Positions 5,697 through 13,141 of a DNA stretch of 24,969 bases are shown piece after piece. Within the stretch, counting starts at the first letter, position 1. Each line of letters begins with the position of its first letter. The position numbers and the translations under genes were made by a program. The notes beneath the pieces are model-generated. The model ran no database searches. It had not been told where the DNA came from and worked only from the letters and a program-made list of their open reading frames with translations. Source of the DNA: Candidatus Helarchaeota archaeon (GTDB taxonomy: Archaea; Asgardarchaeota; Lokiarchaeia; Helarchaeales; RDOG01); NCBI GenBank assembly GCA_029838215.1, contig JALGVI010000055.1, positions 1 to 24,969 of the forward strand, written 5' to 3'.

Positions 5697-6848
5697 TTGA
5701 AATTGATGGGGCAATTACAGGGATTTGACATCTTAAAATCCTGTTATCAATGCGGAAAGTGCACTGGTTTTTGTCCTTTGAGCATGTTCGGCAATTTTTC
5801 ACCTCGAATCATTGCAAGAGACTTTTTAATTGATTCAAAACCATCGCAAAAAATATGGAAATGCCTCACGTGTGATCTTTGTTCTACTAATTGTCCCATG
5901 GATATTAAATTTTCGGAATTTATATTGTCTTGCCGCCTTCACTCCAACGAATTGGGTTTAGAGAAACCCGAAGAAGCTCATTCTTGCTATTTTTCGAGCA
6001 TTTCGAAATTCATGTCTCATGAGGTACTTCAACCCAAACGACATGTTGACATTTCGAGCGATATCAAGCACGTAAAGACGGGTGATATTTTATTCTTTAG
6101 GGGCTGCGTGCCTTTTTTCAATCTTGAATCTCACGTTTCAGGGCTTGAAAAGGATTATACTATTTTCTCGAGAAGTGTGGTCCGTCTTCTGAATTATCTT
6201 GATATAAAACCGATCTTGCTTGAAAACGAACGCTGTTGCGGACACGACGCGTTGTGGCAGGGTGATTTCACGACATTCGAGCGACTGGCAAGGCTCAATA
6301 TCGATTCAATTGAGAAGACAGGCGCAAAACTGGTGATCTTCAACTGTGCTGAAGGCTATCGAACATTCAAGATCGATTATCCCAATTATTTTGGTAAATT
6401 GAACTTTCAAGTAATTTCATTTCCCGAATTTTTGGATCGCACGTTGAAAGAAAGTGGAAAAGTCCTTCGATCTTTTCGTGACATTTCCGTGACATATCAT
6501 GACCCCTGCAGATTAGGGCGGCAATTAAAAGTCTTTGATGCTCCACGTGACGTGCTTAAAAACATTGATGGAGTAAAACTCTTAGAAATGGAAAACAATC
6601 GTGAACAAGCCAGTTGTTGTGGTGTTAATAGTTGGTTGAATTGCAATCAAGAAAGCAAAGCCCTTCGCAAAATGAGATTACAAGAAGCTGAAGATACTGG
6701 TTCTGATTATTTAATCACGACTTGTCCTAAATGTCAGGTTCATTTCAACTGCTTGAAGAAAGAACTTGTAAAAGAAAATAAGCAAGAATTCAAGATTGAA
6801 ATAAAGGATTTTGCAGTCTTTATTGCCGAAGCGTTGAATTTGATATGA
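5697..6848 (+). CDS. hdrD: HdrD-like (HdrC-HdrB fusion type) Fe-S oxidoreductase: 2x[4Fe-4S] + two CCG domains
   Basis: CYQCGKCTGFCP and CLTCDLCSTNCP. CCG domains GC...CCGH...NCAEG and HDPCRLGR...SCCG...TTCPKC. Start is TTG 5697 or ATG 5706. Confidence 0.85.
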   Translation: MKLMGQLQGFDILKSCYQCGKCTGFCPLSMFGNFSPRIIARDFLIDSKPSQKIWKCLTCDLCSTNCPMDIKFSEFILSCRLHSNELGLEKPEEAHSCYFSSISKFMSHEVLQPKRHVDISSDIKHVKTGDILFFRGCVPFFNLESHVSGLEKDYTIFSRSVVRLLNYLDIKPILLENERCCGHDALWQGDFTTFERLARLNIDSIEKTGAKLVIFNCAEGYRTFKIDYPNYFGKLNFQVISFPEFLDRTLKESGKVLRSFRDISVTYHDPCRLGRQLKVFDAPRDVLKNIDGVKLLEMENNREQASCCGVNSWLNCNQESKALRKMRLQEAEDTGSDYLITTCPKCQVHFNCLKKELVKENKQEFKIEIKDFAVFIAEALNLI

Positions 6849-6857
6849 TGATGTCTC

Positions 6858-9800
6858 ATGGCTGAAAAAAGGAGTCCCATTGTGGTCATAGGAGGCGGTA
6901 TTGCAGGCATTCAAGCAGCATTGGATCTCGTCGATTCCGGATTCGATGTAGAGATCATTGACCGTGAAGCCAGCCTGGGAGGCTTGATCAGCAAGCTAGA
7001 CATCATGTTTCCAACTCATAATTGTCGTTTTTGCACGATCAATCCCGAATTCGTTAAAAGGGCAAGGTATGAAAACCTTACAATTCACGTTAATGCAGAA
7101 ATAAAAGAAGTTGAAGGGTCGTTCGGCAATTTTTCCGTAACCGTTGAGAAATCTTGGAATTTCTGCGATGAAAAAAGATGTAATAACTGCGGTAAATGCG
7201 TTGACTTTTGTTTGAATGAGATTCCCAATGGAAATTTTGCCTTATTAAAAGAAAAGCACCTTCCTTTTTTCAAATATACATTCCGATGTCGTCCCATTCC
7301 CAATCATTTCCATTTTGATCCCGAAATTTGCCTGACCTGTAAAAAATGTCAGGAAATCTGTGACTTGAACGCATTAGATTTCTCCCGCGAAAAAGAAACC
7401 ATCGAAATCGATGCGGCAGCCATCGTGATTTCCACCGGACTGCCAATGTTAGATGCATCGAACTTGAAATCATACAATATGGGTAAGTTTCCTAACATTA
7501 TAACGGGTCTGGAGCTTGAACGCATTTTGAGCCCTCTCGGACCAACGAAAGGAAAGTTAAAGAGACCTCATGATTCTGTCTTTCCGAAAAGAATTGCATG
7601 GCTTTTGTGTGTTGGATCGCGTGATCGCAGGTCCGGTAACAATTATTGTTCACGCATTTGCTGTGAATATTCAATGAAGGAAGTCTTGATGGTAAATGAT
7701 CGATTTCCCGAAATTGAATGTTCCATCTTTTACATGGACCTGCGTATTTCCGAAAAAAACTACGTGCAATATTTGAAACAGGTTAAAGAATCAAGTAATA
7801 TCAGACTCATTTCCGGAAAAGTCTCCTTTATTGAGGAAGATCCCATGTCGAAGAATCTTTACTTGTATTATGAAGATCGAACGACAAATAAATCCCTGAT
7901 ATCTGAGTTTGATTTAGTTGTGCTGGCAACAGGACATGAAGCTACTGCCAGAAGTCTAGAATTAGCAAATATTTTGAATATTGAGTTGGATCAAAATGGT
8001 TTCTATTCATTTGACCCCTTGAAACCAACTGAAACCAATATCCCTGGCGTATATACTTGTGGTTCTTTCACTATGCCCCGAACAATATCTGAGTGCATCG
8101 TATCTGCAAACGCCGTTGCAGGATGTATTTCGAACAGATTATCTTTCTTGAAGGTTCCTTCTCAACAAGTAGTCGTGCATGGGGAACTTTCAGGATCGAA
8201 AAATGAAGAAAGAATCGGTATCTTTATCTGTAATTGTAATGGTCAAATTTCTGACAACGTCAAGATGGATGATGTTATAAAATCAGTCAGCAATTGCAAT
8301 GACGTGAAATTCACGAGTAATGATTTTAATGCATGTGAAAATGCCGATATTTCAAGAATAAAAGAAATAATAAAACTAAATGGGTTGAACCGAGTAGTTT
8401 TTGGTGCATGTCAACCGACAATTTACGAAAAACAAATCAAACAAGAAATCGTTAAGACGGGTTTAAACCCTGATTTAGTGGAGATCGTTAACATACGTGA
8501 GAATTGTTGTTTAACACATGGAAACGACTTGAACTTGGCAACACGAACCACTATAGATCAAATTTTGATCGCTTTATCACGGATTACTGATGTAATTCCT
8601 AATTCAACCATCACGCTCTCTTGCATTAAATCCGTTCTCATTATTGGAGGGGGATTGGCAGGATTGGTCGTGGCTCGGGAATTGGCCAGCCAAGGTATCG
8701 ACTTGTATGTTGTTGAAAAAGAGGGCGAATTGGGTGGAATGCTGAAAAAGATTAACTTGTTGATAGAAGGTCCCGACCCCCAAATTTTTTTGAAATCATT
8801 GAAAAAATCCGTAAATTCTTGGGATAACGTTCACGTTTTCTTAAACTCAGAATTGAAATGCGTGGAAGGACATGTCGGTAATTTCCGCGTTGAGCTAGTC
8901 CAAAATGACAAATGCTTGAATTTCAGAGTCGGGGCGATTGTTATTGCTACTGGGGCAAGAGAATACAAGCCTACTTCTCTAAAAACTCCCGAAACACCTT
9001 TGATAATTAGCCAATTTGAACTCGAACGTAAGATAAAAAATGATGAAAAAATCGGTAATGACCTGATAATGCTGACTCATCCCGAAGATCTTCATTTGAA
9101 TTATCGGCGCTTCAGCAAGATTTCCGTGATTCAAGCTTTAAAGAACGCAATTTTTTTGAAAAACATCAATCAAGATAAAGAAATTGTTGTTTTAACTCGA
9201 AATATCGATCTTTTCGGCACTTATGAAAAATATTACGAAAAAGCCCGTGAGATGGGCATCAATTTCATCCGATTGAGAGAAAACGGCTACCCCGACATCT
9301 CAACGCTCAATGATCGCGTGAAGATCAAATTCCGTGACGAATCAGGGGAGGAAAAGACACTCTTCTCGGATTTATTAGTCCTTAGTTCGGGACTAATGGA
9401 AAACGGAAATGAAAAACTTGCAAGAATATTAAATGTTCCGTTGGATGATGATTTCTTTTTCAAATTACGTGATTCGAAATTACATCCTGTAGAGACCGTG
9501 GTTCCGGGGATCTTTGCGTGTGGGACTGCAACGGGTGCAAGGTTGGTGTATGAAACAATACTTGAAGCCCTTGCTGTATCTTCAAAGATATCCATTCTTT
9601 TAAAGAATGATGTCGTGCAGTTCAGGAAAAATTTCGCTGAAATTGATCCCGACACGTGTATTGGTTGCGGGTCGTGTGCTGAAATTTGTCCGATAGGAGC
9701 AATATCACTTATACATTTATCAAGACAACTGGGAGAGATACTGCTTGAAATGAGAATTTCGGAAGTTGACCCTGTAAAATGCTTGGGATGTGGTACCTGC

Positions 9801-9902
9801 GTGCCGAGGTGTCCTGTTGGGGCGATAAAACAAAAGAACCTATCTCGGGAACAAGTATATATTATGGAAGACATCTTACTAAAAGGTGAAAAGAATAACT
9901 GA
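6858..9902 (+). CDS. hdrA: Long HdrA-like flavoprotein with two FAD modules and ferredoxin domains
   Basis: GGGIAG...FPTHNCRFC, an inserted ferredoxin (CNNCGKC, CLTCKKC), CVGSRD...YCSRICC, an internal IGIFICNC domain, a second GGGLAG module, and C-terminal CIGCGSCAEICP / CLGCGTCVPRCP. Confidence 0.88.
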   Translation: MAEKRSPIVVIGGGIAGIQAALDLVDSGFDVEIIDREASLGGLISKLDIMFPTHNCRFCTINPEFVKRARYENLTIHVNAEIKEVEGSFGNFSVTVEKSWNFCDEKRCNNCGKCVDFCLNEIPNGNFALLKEKHLPFFKYTFRCRPIPNHFHFDPEICLTCKKCQEICDLNALDFSREKETIEIDAAAIVISTGLPMLDASNLKSYNMGKFPNIITGLELERILSPLGPTKGKLKRPHDSVFPKRIAWLLCVGSRDRRSGNNYCSRICCEYSMKEVLMVNDRFPEIECSIFYMDLRISEKNYVQYLKQVKESSNIRLISGKVSFIEEDPMSKNLYLYYEDRTTNKSLISEFDLVVLATGHEATARSLELANILNIELDQNGFYSFDPLKPTETNIPGVYTCGSFTMPRTISECIVSANAVAGCISNRLSFLKVPSQQVVVHGELSGSKNEERIGIFICNCNGQISDNVKMDDVIKSVSNCNDVKFTSNDFNACENADISRIKEIIKLNGLNRVVFGACQPTIYEKQIKQEIVKTGLNPDLVEIVNIRENCCLTHGNDLNLATRTTIDQILIALSRITDVIPNSTITLSCIKSVLIIGGGLAGLVVARELASQGIDLYVVEKEGELGGMLKKINLLIEGPDPQIFLKSLKKSVNSWDNVHVFLNSELKCVEGHVGNFRVELVQNDKCLNFRVGAIVIATGAREYKPTSLKTPETPLIISQFELERKIKNDEKIGNDLIMLTHPEDLHLNYRRFSKISVIQALKNAIFLKNINQDKEIVVLTRNIDLFGTYEKYYEKAREMGINFIRLRENGYPDISTLNDRVKIKFRDESGEEKTLFSDLLVLSSGLMENGNEKLARILNVPLDDDFFFKLRDSKLHPVETVVPGIFACGTATGARLVYETILEALAVSSKISILLKNDVVQFRKNFAEIDPDTCIGCGSCAEICPIGAISLIHLSRQLGEILLEMRISEVDPVKCLGCGTCVPRCPVGAIKQKNLSREQVYIMEDILLKGEKNN

Positions 9903-10332
9903 ACGAAGTATTTTAGCCTTTATTTGCAATTGGTGTGCCCGTGCAGCTCTGGAATCTGCAGCTCTTCATCGAATGGAGTATCCATTTAATGTGAAGTTTA
10001 TCAAATTATCCTGTGTTGGGAGATTGGAACCCATCTTCATTTATAGGGCATTTTTGGAAGGATTTGATGGCATATTGGTATTTGCCTGTCCTCAAAATGA
10101 TTGTCATTATGTCCAAGGTAACATTATCGCTCGAGCCCGAATTGAAAAAATACATGCAACATTAGACTTACTGGGGTTTGATCAGGAGCGATTGAAGGTC
10201 GTTTGGTTAGCTGCAAACGATATTGAAAAGTTTCAAAGATCCATTTTAGAATTCGGAGACCTCCTCGACAAATTGGGGTCTAATCCAATATTCTCGAATT
10301 CAAAAGGAGGTGGTGAGCAGGTTTATGACTGA
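9886..10332 (+). CDS. mvhD: MvhD / hydrogenase iron-sulfur subunit ([2Fe-2S] adaptor), all-Cys form
   Basis: FICNWC, SCVGRLEP, DGILVFAC...DCHY..GN. The GTG start overlaps the upstream hdrA-like stop. Confidence 0.92.
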   Translation: MKRITERSILAFICNWCARAALESAALHRMEYPFNVKFIKLSCVGRLEPIFIYRAFLEGFDGILVFACPQNDCHYVQGNIIARARIEKIHATLDLLGFDQERLKVVWLAANDIEKFQRSILEFGDLLDKLGSNPIFSNSKGGGEQVYD

Positions 10333-12271
10333 AGAAAATGTTCGCATCGGAATTTTTCTATGTCAGTGAGGCAAGAACATCGCAGAAGTTTTAGAAATGA
10401 AAGAACTGGTCAACTTTGCAAAGCAATTTCCAGATGTTGTCGTCGTGGAAGAATCAGTATCATTATGTACTGAATCAGGAGCGGCACAAATTGCAGAAAA
10501 TATTAAAAAGCACGACTTGAATCGAATCATCGTTGCCGCCTGCACGCCAATAACTCACCGAAAAGTCTTTGAGACCATCGTAAAGGAGCACGGCCTAAAT
10601 CCCGGGTATCTCGATTTTATCAATCTCAGAGAACAAGATACTTACGTCCATCGTGATGATCGAGTAAATGCACTCCAACAGGCCAAAGATCTTCTTCGAG
10701 CAAATATTGCACGTTCAAGATTACTTGAAGAAATACCTGTCCGACTTGTCAGGCTTACACCAGAAGCCCTGGTTGTTGGCGGTGGTGTTGCGGGAATTCG
10801 GACGGCTTTAGACCTCGGTTATCATGGATTCAGCACGTATATCGTGGAAAAGTTTCCGTCTATTGGAGGCAATTCCGCAAAATTGGATCGAATATTTCCC
10901 ACGGACGATTGTTGTATCTGAATATTAGGCCCACTCATGCTAAAAGTGGAACGAAACCCTCACATATCTCTGGTGTACGGGGAAATTGAAGACATCGATG
11001 GATATATCGGAAACTTCAAGGTAAAAGTCAAGAAAAAACCGCGGTACATTCGATCTGAACGCTGTAATGCCTGTGGTTCTTGTGCAGAAGTCTGTCCTGT
11101 CATGGTTCCAAATGAATTTAATTGTGGTTTGGATGCACGGAAAGCAATTTACATCCCATTCACGCAAGCAGTTCCTGCTACCTACACGATTGATAAAGAC
11201 CATTGCATAGAATGCCAATTGTGCGTAAAAGCCTGTGACCAAGATGCCATTGACCTCACGCAACAACCGGAAAATCTCGATCTAACCGTTGGGATCATTG
11301 TCGTGGCTACGGGCTTTGAACCATTCAACCCAATCGGGGTATATGGCTATGGACGATACGAGAATGTCATCACGCAACTTGAATTGGAACGAATACTTGC
11401 TCCCAACGGACCCACCGAAGGCAAGCTTAGGAGAATCACGGGTGACAAGGTTCCAAAACGCATTCTAATGATTCAATGCGTTGGTTCAAGGTCTCCAAAA
11501 ACACACGACTATTGTAGTTCTGGAATTTGTTGCATGGTTGCAATAAAAAACGCGCGTCTACTGAAACAACACGATCCTGAAGCGGAAATTACAATTGCTT
11601 ACATCGACATTCGGGCATCTGGAAAACGATATGAAGAATACTATAAAGAAGCACGAGAAATGGGCATCAAGTTCCTGCGCGGGAACGTATCTAAAGTAAA
11701 GGAAGACCCAAAAACAAAGAACATAACTGCACGAATTGAAGACACGCTCAACAATTCCGTGAGAAATCACGAATTTGATCTGGTGGTACTCTCCGTGGGG
11801 ATGGAACCCGCGAAAGAAACAAGTCGAATGGCACGGATGCTGGGAATTGACACGAGCACGGACGGATACTTCAAAGAACTCCATCCTCGCTTGTATCCAA
11901 TCACGACAAAAGTCCCTGGTGTATTTCTGGCGGGTGCTTGTCAAGGTCCACGATCTGTCGATCAAACCGTTGCAACGGGGAAAGGAGCTGCATCTGCTTC
12001 CGCAATCCTAATGTCACACGGTGTCTACGAAATGGAACTGATAAAGGCAGAAATTGATCTCGCAAAGTGCAGCAGGTGTGGACTATGCGTGGAAGTCTGT
12101 CCGTACCACGCGATCTCAATCAAGCACGGTCGAACAATCGTGAATGAAATTACCTGTCGAGGTTGTGGGGCATGTGAAACCGTGTGCAAGAACGATGCCA
12201 TCGAACTTCGCTACTATAGGAACAGGCAGCTGGTGACTTATATCGAAAATTTGGTTCAAAAAGCACGATAA
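10325..12271 (+). CDS. hdrA: Heterodisulfide reductase subunit A, selenoprotein with two in-frame UGA (Sec15, Sec199), 648 aa
   Basis: ATG 10325 follows GGAGGTGGTGAG. The sequence reads MTEENVRIGIFLCQ-UGA(10367-10369)-GKNI (canonical C-x-C-G-x-N-I) and FPTDDCCI-UGA(10919-10921)-ILGP (canonical D-C-x-x-C-I-L-x-P). The pieces at 10397-10921 and 10937-12271 are in this same frame and end at TAA. The length matches a standard HdrA, and a SECIS-like hairpin follows the stop. Confidence 0.93.
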
Positions 12272-12292
12272 CTTGCCTGCATTGAAAATTTA

Positions 12293-12365
12293 ATGTTAAG
12301 ACGAATGATCTTTTTAGGTAAAGGCTCACTAAAAAGGGACAACTCCACGCCAGGAGTCTTGACAT
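12293..12365 (+). promoter_or_regulatory. Eukaryote-type SECIS-like element in the hdrA 3' UTR
   Basis: AUGA (12305-12308), then a 9-bp stem UCUUUUUAG/CUAAAAAGG (12309-12317/12329-12337) with an 11-nt loop GUAAAGGCUCA containing AAA, then GA (12338-12339). Lower helix AUGUUAAG(AC)/(GU)CUUGACAU at 12293-12302/12356-12365. Confidence 0.85.
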
Positions 12366-12452: not shown

Positions 12453-12785
12453 CTAATGAAACTTAATTCCGGTTCGAATGGCTTCGCGGATGATACTTAT
12501 TTCGTTCCTTCTTCGTTGAAATTCAGTATTAGTCAAACAAATCGGTTCAAGAGAGATTCTATCTTCTGTCCAGTATTGAATGATATTAATGATCCTATCT
12601 CGAAATGATAATTGGTCGAACTTGTCTGATACTACGAGTAAATCCACATCGCTTGACCTAAGATGAGTTTTAGTTGCTCTCGAACCAAATAAATATATTT
12701 GAACTTTGCTATCGAAGCACGTTTTCAATTTTTGACAGAATTTTTTTATGGTCTTATTTACTTCTCGATCATCGATGTGACCCAT
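12453..12785 (-). CDS. Minimal nucleotidyltransferase (MNT) domain protein, antitoxin-type
   Basis: IYLFGSRA...SDVDLLVVSD is the Pol-beta GS/DxD motif. 110 aa, overlapping the HEPN gene by 28 bp. Confidence 0.9.
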   Translation of the reverse strand: MGHIDDREVNKTIKKFCQKLKTCFDSKVQIYLFGSRATKTHLRSSDVDLLVVSDKFDQLSFRDRIINIIQYWTEDRISLEPICLTNTEFQRRRNEISIIREAIRTGIKFH

Positions 12786-13141
12786 TTTATTATTCTTTCT
12801 CCTTTATTCAAAATACGAACGGCAATCTCTTCATCATATAATTCGGCAGGTATCCCATTTGCGGCATCGGGATATCTTGTTGTCATGTAATCGGGAGTTA
12901 ATTCTCTCAGAAAAGAGTAAAAATCTTCAGGTAATTCAATTTCCCTCCCTAATTCCAAAAGGTTGTGAGTTTTTAATGGTAAATCATTTTTACTATGAAT
13001 AAACAGGGCTTTTAGAGATTTTTCAACTGCTTGATGGAGAAAATATACGCTCGCGTAATAATTCTCCAACCCTATGTTATCTCTTGCTGTCTTGAGATCT
13101 GCTTTTGCCTGGTACCACCATCTCCGTGTTTCTTCCCGCAT
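12758..13141 (-). CDS. HEPN domain protein (HEPN-MNT toxin-antitoxin-type pair)
   Basis: W..QAKADLKTA...F.LHQAVEKSLKA...KTHNL..L...Y..TRYPD is typical of archaeal HEPN proteins paired with MNT. Confidence 0.9.
   Translation of the reverse strand: MREETRRWWYQAKADLKTARDNIGLENYYASVYFLHQAVEKSLKALFIHSKNDLPLKTHNLLELGREIELPEDFYSFLRELTPDYMTTRYPDAANGIPAELYDEEIAVRILNKGERIIKWVTSMIEK

Follow-up and report, generated by a model that had tools for sequence, protein, structure and literature searches.

We analysed a 24,969-nt stretch of DNA (contig JALGVI010000055.1, positions 1 to 24,969, from assembly GCA_029838215.1 of a Candidatus Helarchaeota archaeon), which is referred to here as the window. On its forward strand lies an hdrA gene, for the electron-splitting flavoprotein HdrA, that is interrupted by two in-frame UGA codons and followed directly by a eukaryote-like selenocysteine insertion sequence (SECIS). 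Judging from the sequence, this region is very probably a functional hdrA of a Helarchaeales (Asgard) archaeon, with a product containing two selenocysteine (Sec, U) residues. The features concerned, all on the + strand, are:

10325..12271, +, hdrA, 648 codons plus a TAA stop, encoding a five-domain HdrA of the HdrA1 type (by translation, Pfam and a full-length match to a solved HdrA)
10367..10369, +, UGA codon 15, proposed Sec, at the second position of the N-terminal C-x-C-G motif and aligned with Cys13 of 9sfi_A
10919..10921, +, UGA codon 199, proposed Sec, at the canonical C-x-x-U site (C196...U199) and aligned with Sec197 (written X) of Methanococcus maripaludis HdrA, 9sfi_A
12293..12365, +, whole SECIS structure, a three-way junction in which a closing helix (12293-12302/12356-12365) surrounds the core hairpin, with a short side hairpin 3′ of the latter
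12305..12339, +, core of the Loki-type SECIS (lokiSECIS), with AUGA, a 9-bp stem (12309-12317/12329-12337), an 11-nt apical loop GUAAAGGCUCA, and GA (found by whole-genome pattern scan)

Translation of 10325-12365 (+) with TGA read as U gives one frame of 648 residues with exactly two TGA codons, in the motifs FLCQ-U-GKNI (U15) and DDCCI-U-ILGP (U199), and a TAA at 12269-12271, while the reverse strand of the same stretch has many stops. Plain open reading frame (ORF) calling splits the gene into a 14-codon head, 10397-10921 and 10937-12271. The full-length product matches solved HdrA structures in the PDB over almost its entire length: 9sfi_A at E 1.8e-208 (residues 6-647) and 5odc_A, the Cys form from Methanothermococcus thermolithotrophicus, at E 4.8e-207. 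In the first of these alignments Cys13, opposite U15, belongs to a C-Y-C-G motif, and the C196...U199 pair falls on DDCAMX. Pfam finds Pyr_redox_2, FAD_binding_2 and DAO, which together make up the FAD/thioredoxin-reductase domain with its C-x-x-C(U) pair, and Fer4-family matches at residues 244-306 and 575-628, corresponding to the inserted and the C-terminal 2x[4Fe-4S] ferredoxin domains. The N-terminal Fe-S domain is also present, with C13, U15, C48 and C73 on columns that read CCCC in Cys-type homologues. A preliminary description, made from the letters of this DNA, had joined the three ORF pieces into one HdrA missed by ORF calling, and had placed both UGAs at conserved Cys positions, the second of them at the C-x-x-U site that carries Sec in Methanococcales; on all of these points our analysis agrees with it.

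The same arrangement recurs within the genome and among its relatives. The genome of the window (3.6 Mb, 94% complete, 6% contamination) contains two further hdrA genes whose TGAs fall on the same pair of columns (the first within C-N-U-G and C-R-U-G, the second within DDCCIU in both), each with a SECIS behind it, so that there are three such genes overall; the two paralogues are only 50-57% identical to the hdrA of the window. Four all-Cys full-length hdrA paralogues are found besides these. Counted across the whole genome, at least seven full-length hdrA genes and many fused forms were seen. Every one of 30 related genomes gave matches to hdrA, as did 31 of 31 genomes of the class; the majority of the top matches have 2-5 in-frame TGA codons, and a multi-TGA hdrA is present in all 31. 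Taking one best locus per genome, the U199 column is U in 29 of 29 relatives; the U15 column is covered by 27 loci, of which 24 have U, and some of the loci have U at columns 48 and 73 as well. Outside the Asgard archaea both columns are Cys in Bathyarchaeia, Methanobacteriaceae, Halobacteriota and Dehalococcoidia, and many Syntrophobacteraceae have U at the canonical site only. The loci of two same-order genomes, G002 and G005, are sequence-identical to those of Helarchaeota Hel_GB_B and Hel_GB_A respectively, and the organism therefore belongs to the Helarchaeales, which sit inside the class named Lokiarchaeia by GTDB.

The SECIS core begins 33 nt after the TAA stop of hdrA, its AUGA (12305) lying 1936 nt past the first UGA and 1384 nt past the second. 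As letters it reads ATGA / TCTTTTTAG / GTAAAGGCTCA / CTAAAAAGG / GA at 12305-12339, and its geometry exactly matches the lokiSECIS of Mariotti et al. (PMC4989117). The whole structure folds with a minimum free energy of -20.4 kcal/mol (z -2.7 against shuffles). A covariance model built from the equivalent elements behind hdrA or hdrA-vhuD units of 19 other genomes, with the window excluded, was run with filters off against the window and three loci of the same genome; its best match was 12299-12345 (26.7 bits, E 0.0017), ranks 2 and 3 fell behind the other two double-TGA hdrA units of this genome, and all else scored 11.5 bits or less (11.4 bits for the runner-up inside the window). Covariation was seen in the relatives at 9 of 9 stem pairs, with the caveat that their sequences had been preselected by pairing pattern. 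A relaxed form of the pattern, which occurs 119 times in 7.25 Mb of the organism's own genome (both strands), would be expected 0.43 times in the 29 x 910 nt behind related units (hdrA or hdrA-vhuD), yet 26 of the 29 have one there. An Rfam scan of the window returned nothing at gathering score and, for the 3′ region, only chance-level matches (E of at least 1), with no SECIS family among them, and no bacterial-type hairpin was found directly 3′ of either UGA (fold z +1.25 and +0.12). We also observed that a closing helix of 6-10 bp with a short 3′ side hairpin folds alike in most relatives (loci L100, L101, L103, L104, L109, L113, L119, L121 and L125).

Machinery for Sec synthesis and insertion is encoded in the same genome. 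The genes for EFSec (282 bits), SepSecS (424.6 bits) and tRNA-Sec (52.9 bits) adjoin one another on contig C165, and SelD, on C55, has a single in-frame TGA and is thus itself a Sec-containing SelD; all four matches are above curated cut-offs. The preliminary description had also proposed one SECIS some 1.9 and 1.4 kb downstream of the two UGAs, and had looked to U/C exchange among homologues and to the Sec machinery as checks on its reading; the distances, the U or Cys columns and the genes given above bear it out, with a PSTK-like gene, considered below, falling short of its cut-off. A genome-wide reassignment of TGA was considered and rejected, since TGA is the ordinary stop of 11 of the 21 main ORFs in the window. 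Two other candidate selenoprotein genes were noticed in passing. On contig C111 a small ORF ending at about 41856 has two adjacent in-frame TGAs (…DAGC-U-U-DPF…) and runs into a perfect lokiSECIS (41853-41888, +) whose AUGA provides the stop; on contig C49 (15830-15865, +) a VhuU-like peptide (…DC-U-LSCAAH…) follows a [NiFe] hydrogenase large subunit and has its stop UGA inside the AUGA of its own SECIS, as described for Loki VhuU.1.

Upstream of hdrA, and sharing its strand, lie three genes for likely partner proteins:

5697..6848, +, HdrC/HdrB-like fusion, a ferredoxin domain plus two CCG domains (Pfam PF02754 CCG, E 1.3e-28; Fer4 families)
6858..9902, +, fused double HdrA-like protein of 1014 aa, all-Cys (Pfam, self-genome search, column mapping)
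9886..10332, +, mvhD (FlpD family), all-Cys, 148 codons (Pfam PF02662, E 7.6e-41; no internal TGA)

The order is thus HdrC/B-like fusion, fused double HdrA-like gene, all-Cys mvhD, Sec-hdrA and SECIS, with the TGA stop of mvhD overlapping the start ATG of hdrA (ATGA), and then a pair of genes on the opposite strand. The two genes of this pair (12453-13141, -), for a nucleotidyltransferase of 110 aa and a HEPN protein of 127 aa, overlap each other, are typical of HEPN/MNT toxin-antitoxin-like pairs and converge on the 3′ end of hdrA, so that the 3′ untranslated region of hdrA is limited to approximately 180 nt. In five related loci an HdrCB-like gene is likewise found together with Sec-hdrA, and the HdrC/HdrB-like fusion is likely to be the disulfide-reducing partner of HdrA. 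The first half of the fused HdrA-like protein (residues 9-421) has a CxxC pair (C56/C59) and is without the N-terminal Fe-S domain, while the second half (residues 452-1009) has the four N-terminal Cys residues (458, 460, 493 and 518) and is without CxxC; such complementary halves of a fused HdrA form a built-in heterodimer in the interpretation of Chadwick et al.

This layout is not confined to the window. On contig C12 of the same genome (approximately 26246-32912; locus L136, 4241-10912, minus strand) the module of hdrCB-like gene, fused hdrA-like gene, all-Cys mvhD, hdrA with two Sec and SECIS is duplicated in the same order, with 33-57% protein identity across the four genes (33% for the fused hdrA-like protein, 57% for HdrA). 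The C12 unit differs from that of the window in that its hdrA stop is a UGA within the SECIS AUGA, and in that its core ends in AA, where that of the window ends in GA. The mvhD-hdrA junction seen in the window is present both on C12 and in G001, the one genome of the same family, which keeps the order in part: there, no fused hdrA-like gene separates hdrCB-like from mvhD. Hel_GB_A, Hel_GB_B and an additional metagenome-assembled genome (MAG) begin the set with Sec-hdrA and a SECIS of its own, after which follow the HdrCB-like and fused HdrA genes. Since hdrA has its own SECIS on C12, in Hel_GB_A, in Hel_GB_B and in the additional MAG, an hdrA-owned SECIS is a variant that recurs in Helarchaeales rather than a novel type of system. 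The genome of the window also has, on contig C110, the classic hdrA-vhuD(2 Sec)-SECIS unit.

Taken together, these features suggest that both UGA codons of hdrA almost certainly encode selenocysteine. It is extremely unlikely that both TGAs are real stops, with hdrA a pseudogene or expressed as three separate pieces: standard ORF calling does split the gene, and TGA is common as a stop in the window, but the two TGAs stand on invariant Cys columns in a frame that is intact for the rest of its 648 codons and matches a solved HdrA at about 1e-208, their positions are repeated in the divergent paralogues and in dozens of genomes, and a SECIS is present together with the complete Sec machinery. 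That the TGAs arose from Cys codons (TGY) through errors in sequencing or assembly is barely credible. The contig comes from a MAG, and the preliminary description had held that reads with TGY at these codons would count against it; the two public DNA runs that we consulted contain 5-11% of the sampled words and leave most of hdrA without clean cover. Nevertheless, the TGA at 10919-10921 is reproduced unchanged in contigs from two public metagenome runs of different studies, and random error cannot account for the same TGA placement in three paralogues of one genome and in most related genomes. Readthrough that is not, or not always, by Sec (near-cognate Cys or Trp at low selenium, or only one of the sites being efficient) is very unlikely, if rather less so than the other two explanations. 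In its favour, the inserted residue is here read from genes, the action of a single SECIS on two sites across 1.9 kb is for Asgard archaea a proposal made from genes, and the four all-Cys paralogues could stand in for the Sec-HdrA; yet the dedicated machinery, the Sec-containing SelD and the SECIS right behind hdrA argue for programmed insertion, and the canonical site is proven Sec in Methanococcus (PMC13518236).

Some observations do weigh against reading the gene as a Sec-HdrA with two selenocysteines. The PSTK-like gene, on contig C112, is a strong match by E-value (6.5e-47) and scores 160.6 bits, below the NCBIfam cut-off of 290.5. The first TGA (10367-10369) is covered in the public runs solely by one short piece with 4 mismatches, and thus has no independent read support. 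That U15 itself is a ligand of an Fe-S cluster (HA3, see below) is something we infer from its alignment column. Lastly, TGA is the stop of all three same-strand genes upstream, at distances from the SECIS of approximately 2.0, 2.4 and 5.4 kb, whereas hdrA has TAA; readthrough of the mvhD stop would append no fewer than 39 residues out of frame. Should the operon form a single mRNA, the SECIS would have to tell these UGAs apart, and the published model, in which any distant UGA is recoded, does not explain how. Either the upstream TGA-ending genes are off the hdrA mRNA, or they are shielded by codon context or by termination-reinitiation coupling.

Reading hdrA as a gene for a protein with two Sec residues, we propose that EFSec with Sec-tRNA-Sec would be recruited during translation via the single 3′ SECIS, and could recode both UGAs, 1.9 and 1.4 kb upstream of it, as has been proposed for other Loki HdrA genes. 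U199 would be the Sec of the C-x-x-U pair, with the bifurcating FAD on one side of it and, on the other, the partner protomer's [4Fe-4S] ‘shuttle’ cluster (HA3, or A3). The N-terminal domain, which holds HA3, has four invariant Cys positions, and U15 would take one of them. As U15 lies in the domain holding HA3 and U199 beside that cluster, both selenium atoms may act at one gated electron-transfer junction. Structures of related complexes describe the canonical site: Cys197 was described in a crystal structure as a ligand of the partner's N-terminal cluster HA3 (PMC9012536), density at Sec197 in the cryo-electron microscopy (cryo-EM) structure of the M. maripaludis complex was interpreted as a selenosulphur bond located between A3 and FAD (PMC13518236), and the M. 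marburgensis complex has an unknown ligand on its Cys202/Cys205 pair (PMC13580544). The selenoproteome papers (PMC4989117, PMC11227280), written before or without Hdr structures, say of the additional Sec sites that they do not ligate clusters. It is possible, although we consider it somewhat doubtful, that in an HdrA dimer HA3 is contacted both by U199 from one protomer and by U15 from its partner, the two forming a pair on one metal centre and not two independent substitutions. Were this so, the protein might contain an Fe-S cluster with natural selenium ligation, or a Se-Se or Se-S switch beside HA3, and the paired Sec residues might tune flavin-based electron bifurcation in its gated low-potential branch.

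Together with the products of its neighbours (MvhD, the HdrCB-like subunit and the fused HdrA-like protein), HdrA would probably act as a flavin-based electron-bifurcating disulfide reductase. We found no alpha subunit of methyl-coenzyme M reductase (MCR; PF02249) in the 94%-complete genome, and the disulfide substrate of the system is therefore probably not CoM-S-S-CoB, the heterodisulfide of coenzymes M and B.

How much of this is new can be judged from two earlier studies. Mariotti et al. described multi-Sec Loki HdrA in 2016, with five Sec positions, up to four Sec per protein and all Sec served by one SECIS over approximately 2 kb, and noted that hdrA never ends in UGA (PMC4989117); the Asgard selenoproteome study of 2024 in ISME J lists HdrA as one of five widespread families (PMC11227280). 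The supplementary FASTA of the latter, which writes Sec as X, holds 440 Asgard HdrA entries, and of these at least 337 have C-x-X-G (CRXG 175, CQXG 131, CHXG 23, CKXG 6, CNXG 1 and CTXG 1), so the N-terminal Sec is the majority state among published Asgard HdrA proteins and is not new. DDCCIXI occurs 3 times among the HdrA entries of this supplement, and the exact sequence CQXGKNI is absent from it. The preliminary description, which had claimed an additional Sec in the N-terminal motif and could not say whether it had been described before, was thus right about the Cys column on which U15 falls, while the residue itself has been on record since 2016.

The hdrA of the window is real, and as multi-Sec HdrA with lokiSECIS has been known since 2016 and was widely catalogued in 2024, it adds little for biology. 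Its interest lies in more particular points. Gene callers split double-UGA hdrA, of which there are three split-prone examples in this genome alone, and the Hdr inventory of Helarchaeales will therefore be under-counted unless UGA is read through. In Helarchaeales a SECIS belonging to hdrA itself is frequent, mvhD being either absent or upstream, so the rule that hdrA and vhuD always share one SECIS is not universal. The upstream genes that must terminate at UGA bear on the question of how a distant SECIS chooses its codons. Finally, as recent Hdr cryo-EM work places the canonical Sec at the junction from FAD to the shuttle cluster, the N-terminal Sec, in the domain that holds this cluster, becomes of structural interest.

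Considering the known systems, the window hdrA resembles the Sec-HdrA of Methanococcales and Methanopyrus in its five domains, in Sec at the C-x-x-U site and in its association with MvhD/VhuD. Those proteins have a single Sec, with Cys at the C-x-C position, where the window protein would have two Sec residues; they are served by archaeal-type SECIS elements instead of the eukaryote-like lokiSECIS of the window; and they work in methanogenesis with MCR, whereas no MCR alpha subunit was found in this genome. The closer likeness is to the multi-Sec HdrA of Loki and other Asgard archaea, with which the window gene shares its family, the Sec at the site near residue 200 plus extra Sec at conserved N-terminal Cys positions, a non-UGA stop, and one eukaryote-like SECIS serving UGAs up to approximately 2 kb upstream. 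It differs from these published genes in its layout, since there hdrA is described as always followed by a Sec-containing vhuD/frhD with a shared SECIS behind vhuD, whereas in the window an all-Cys mvhD stands upstream and the SECIS comes directly after hdrA. It differs also in the start of the SECIS loop, which is GUAAA in the window as against AAAAA, the form G[U/G]AAA being given for other clades in the 2024 paper (PMC11227280).

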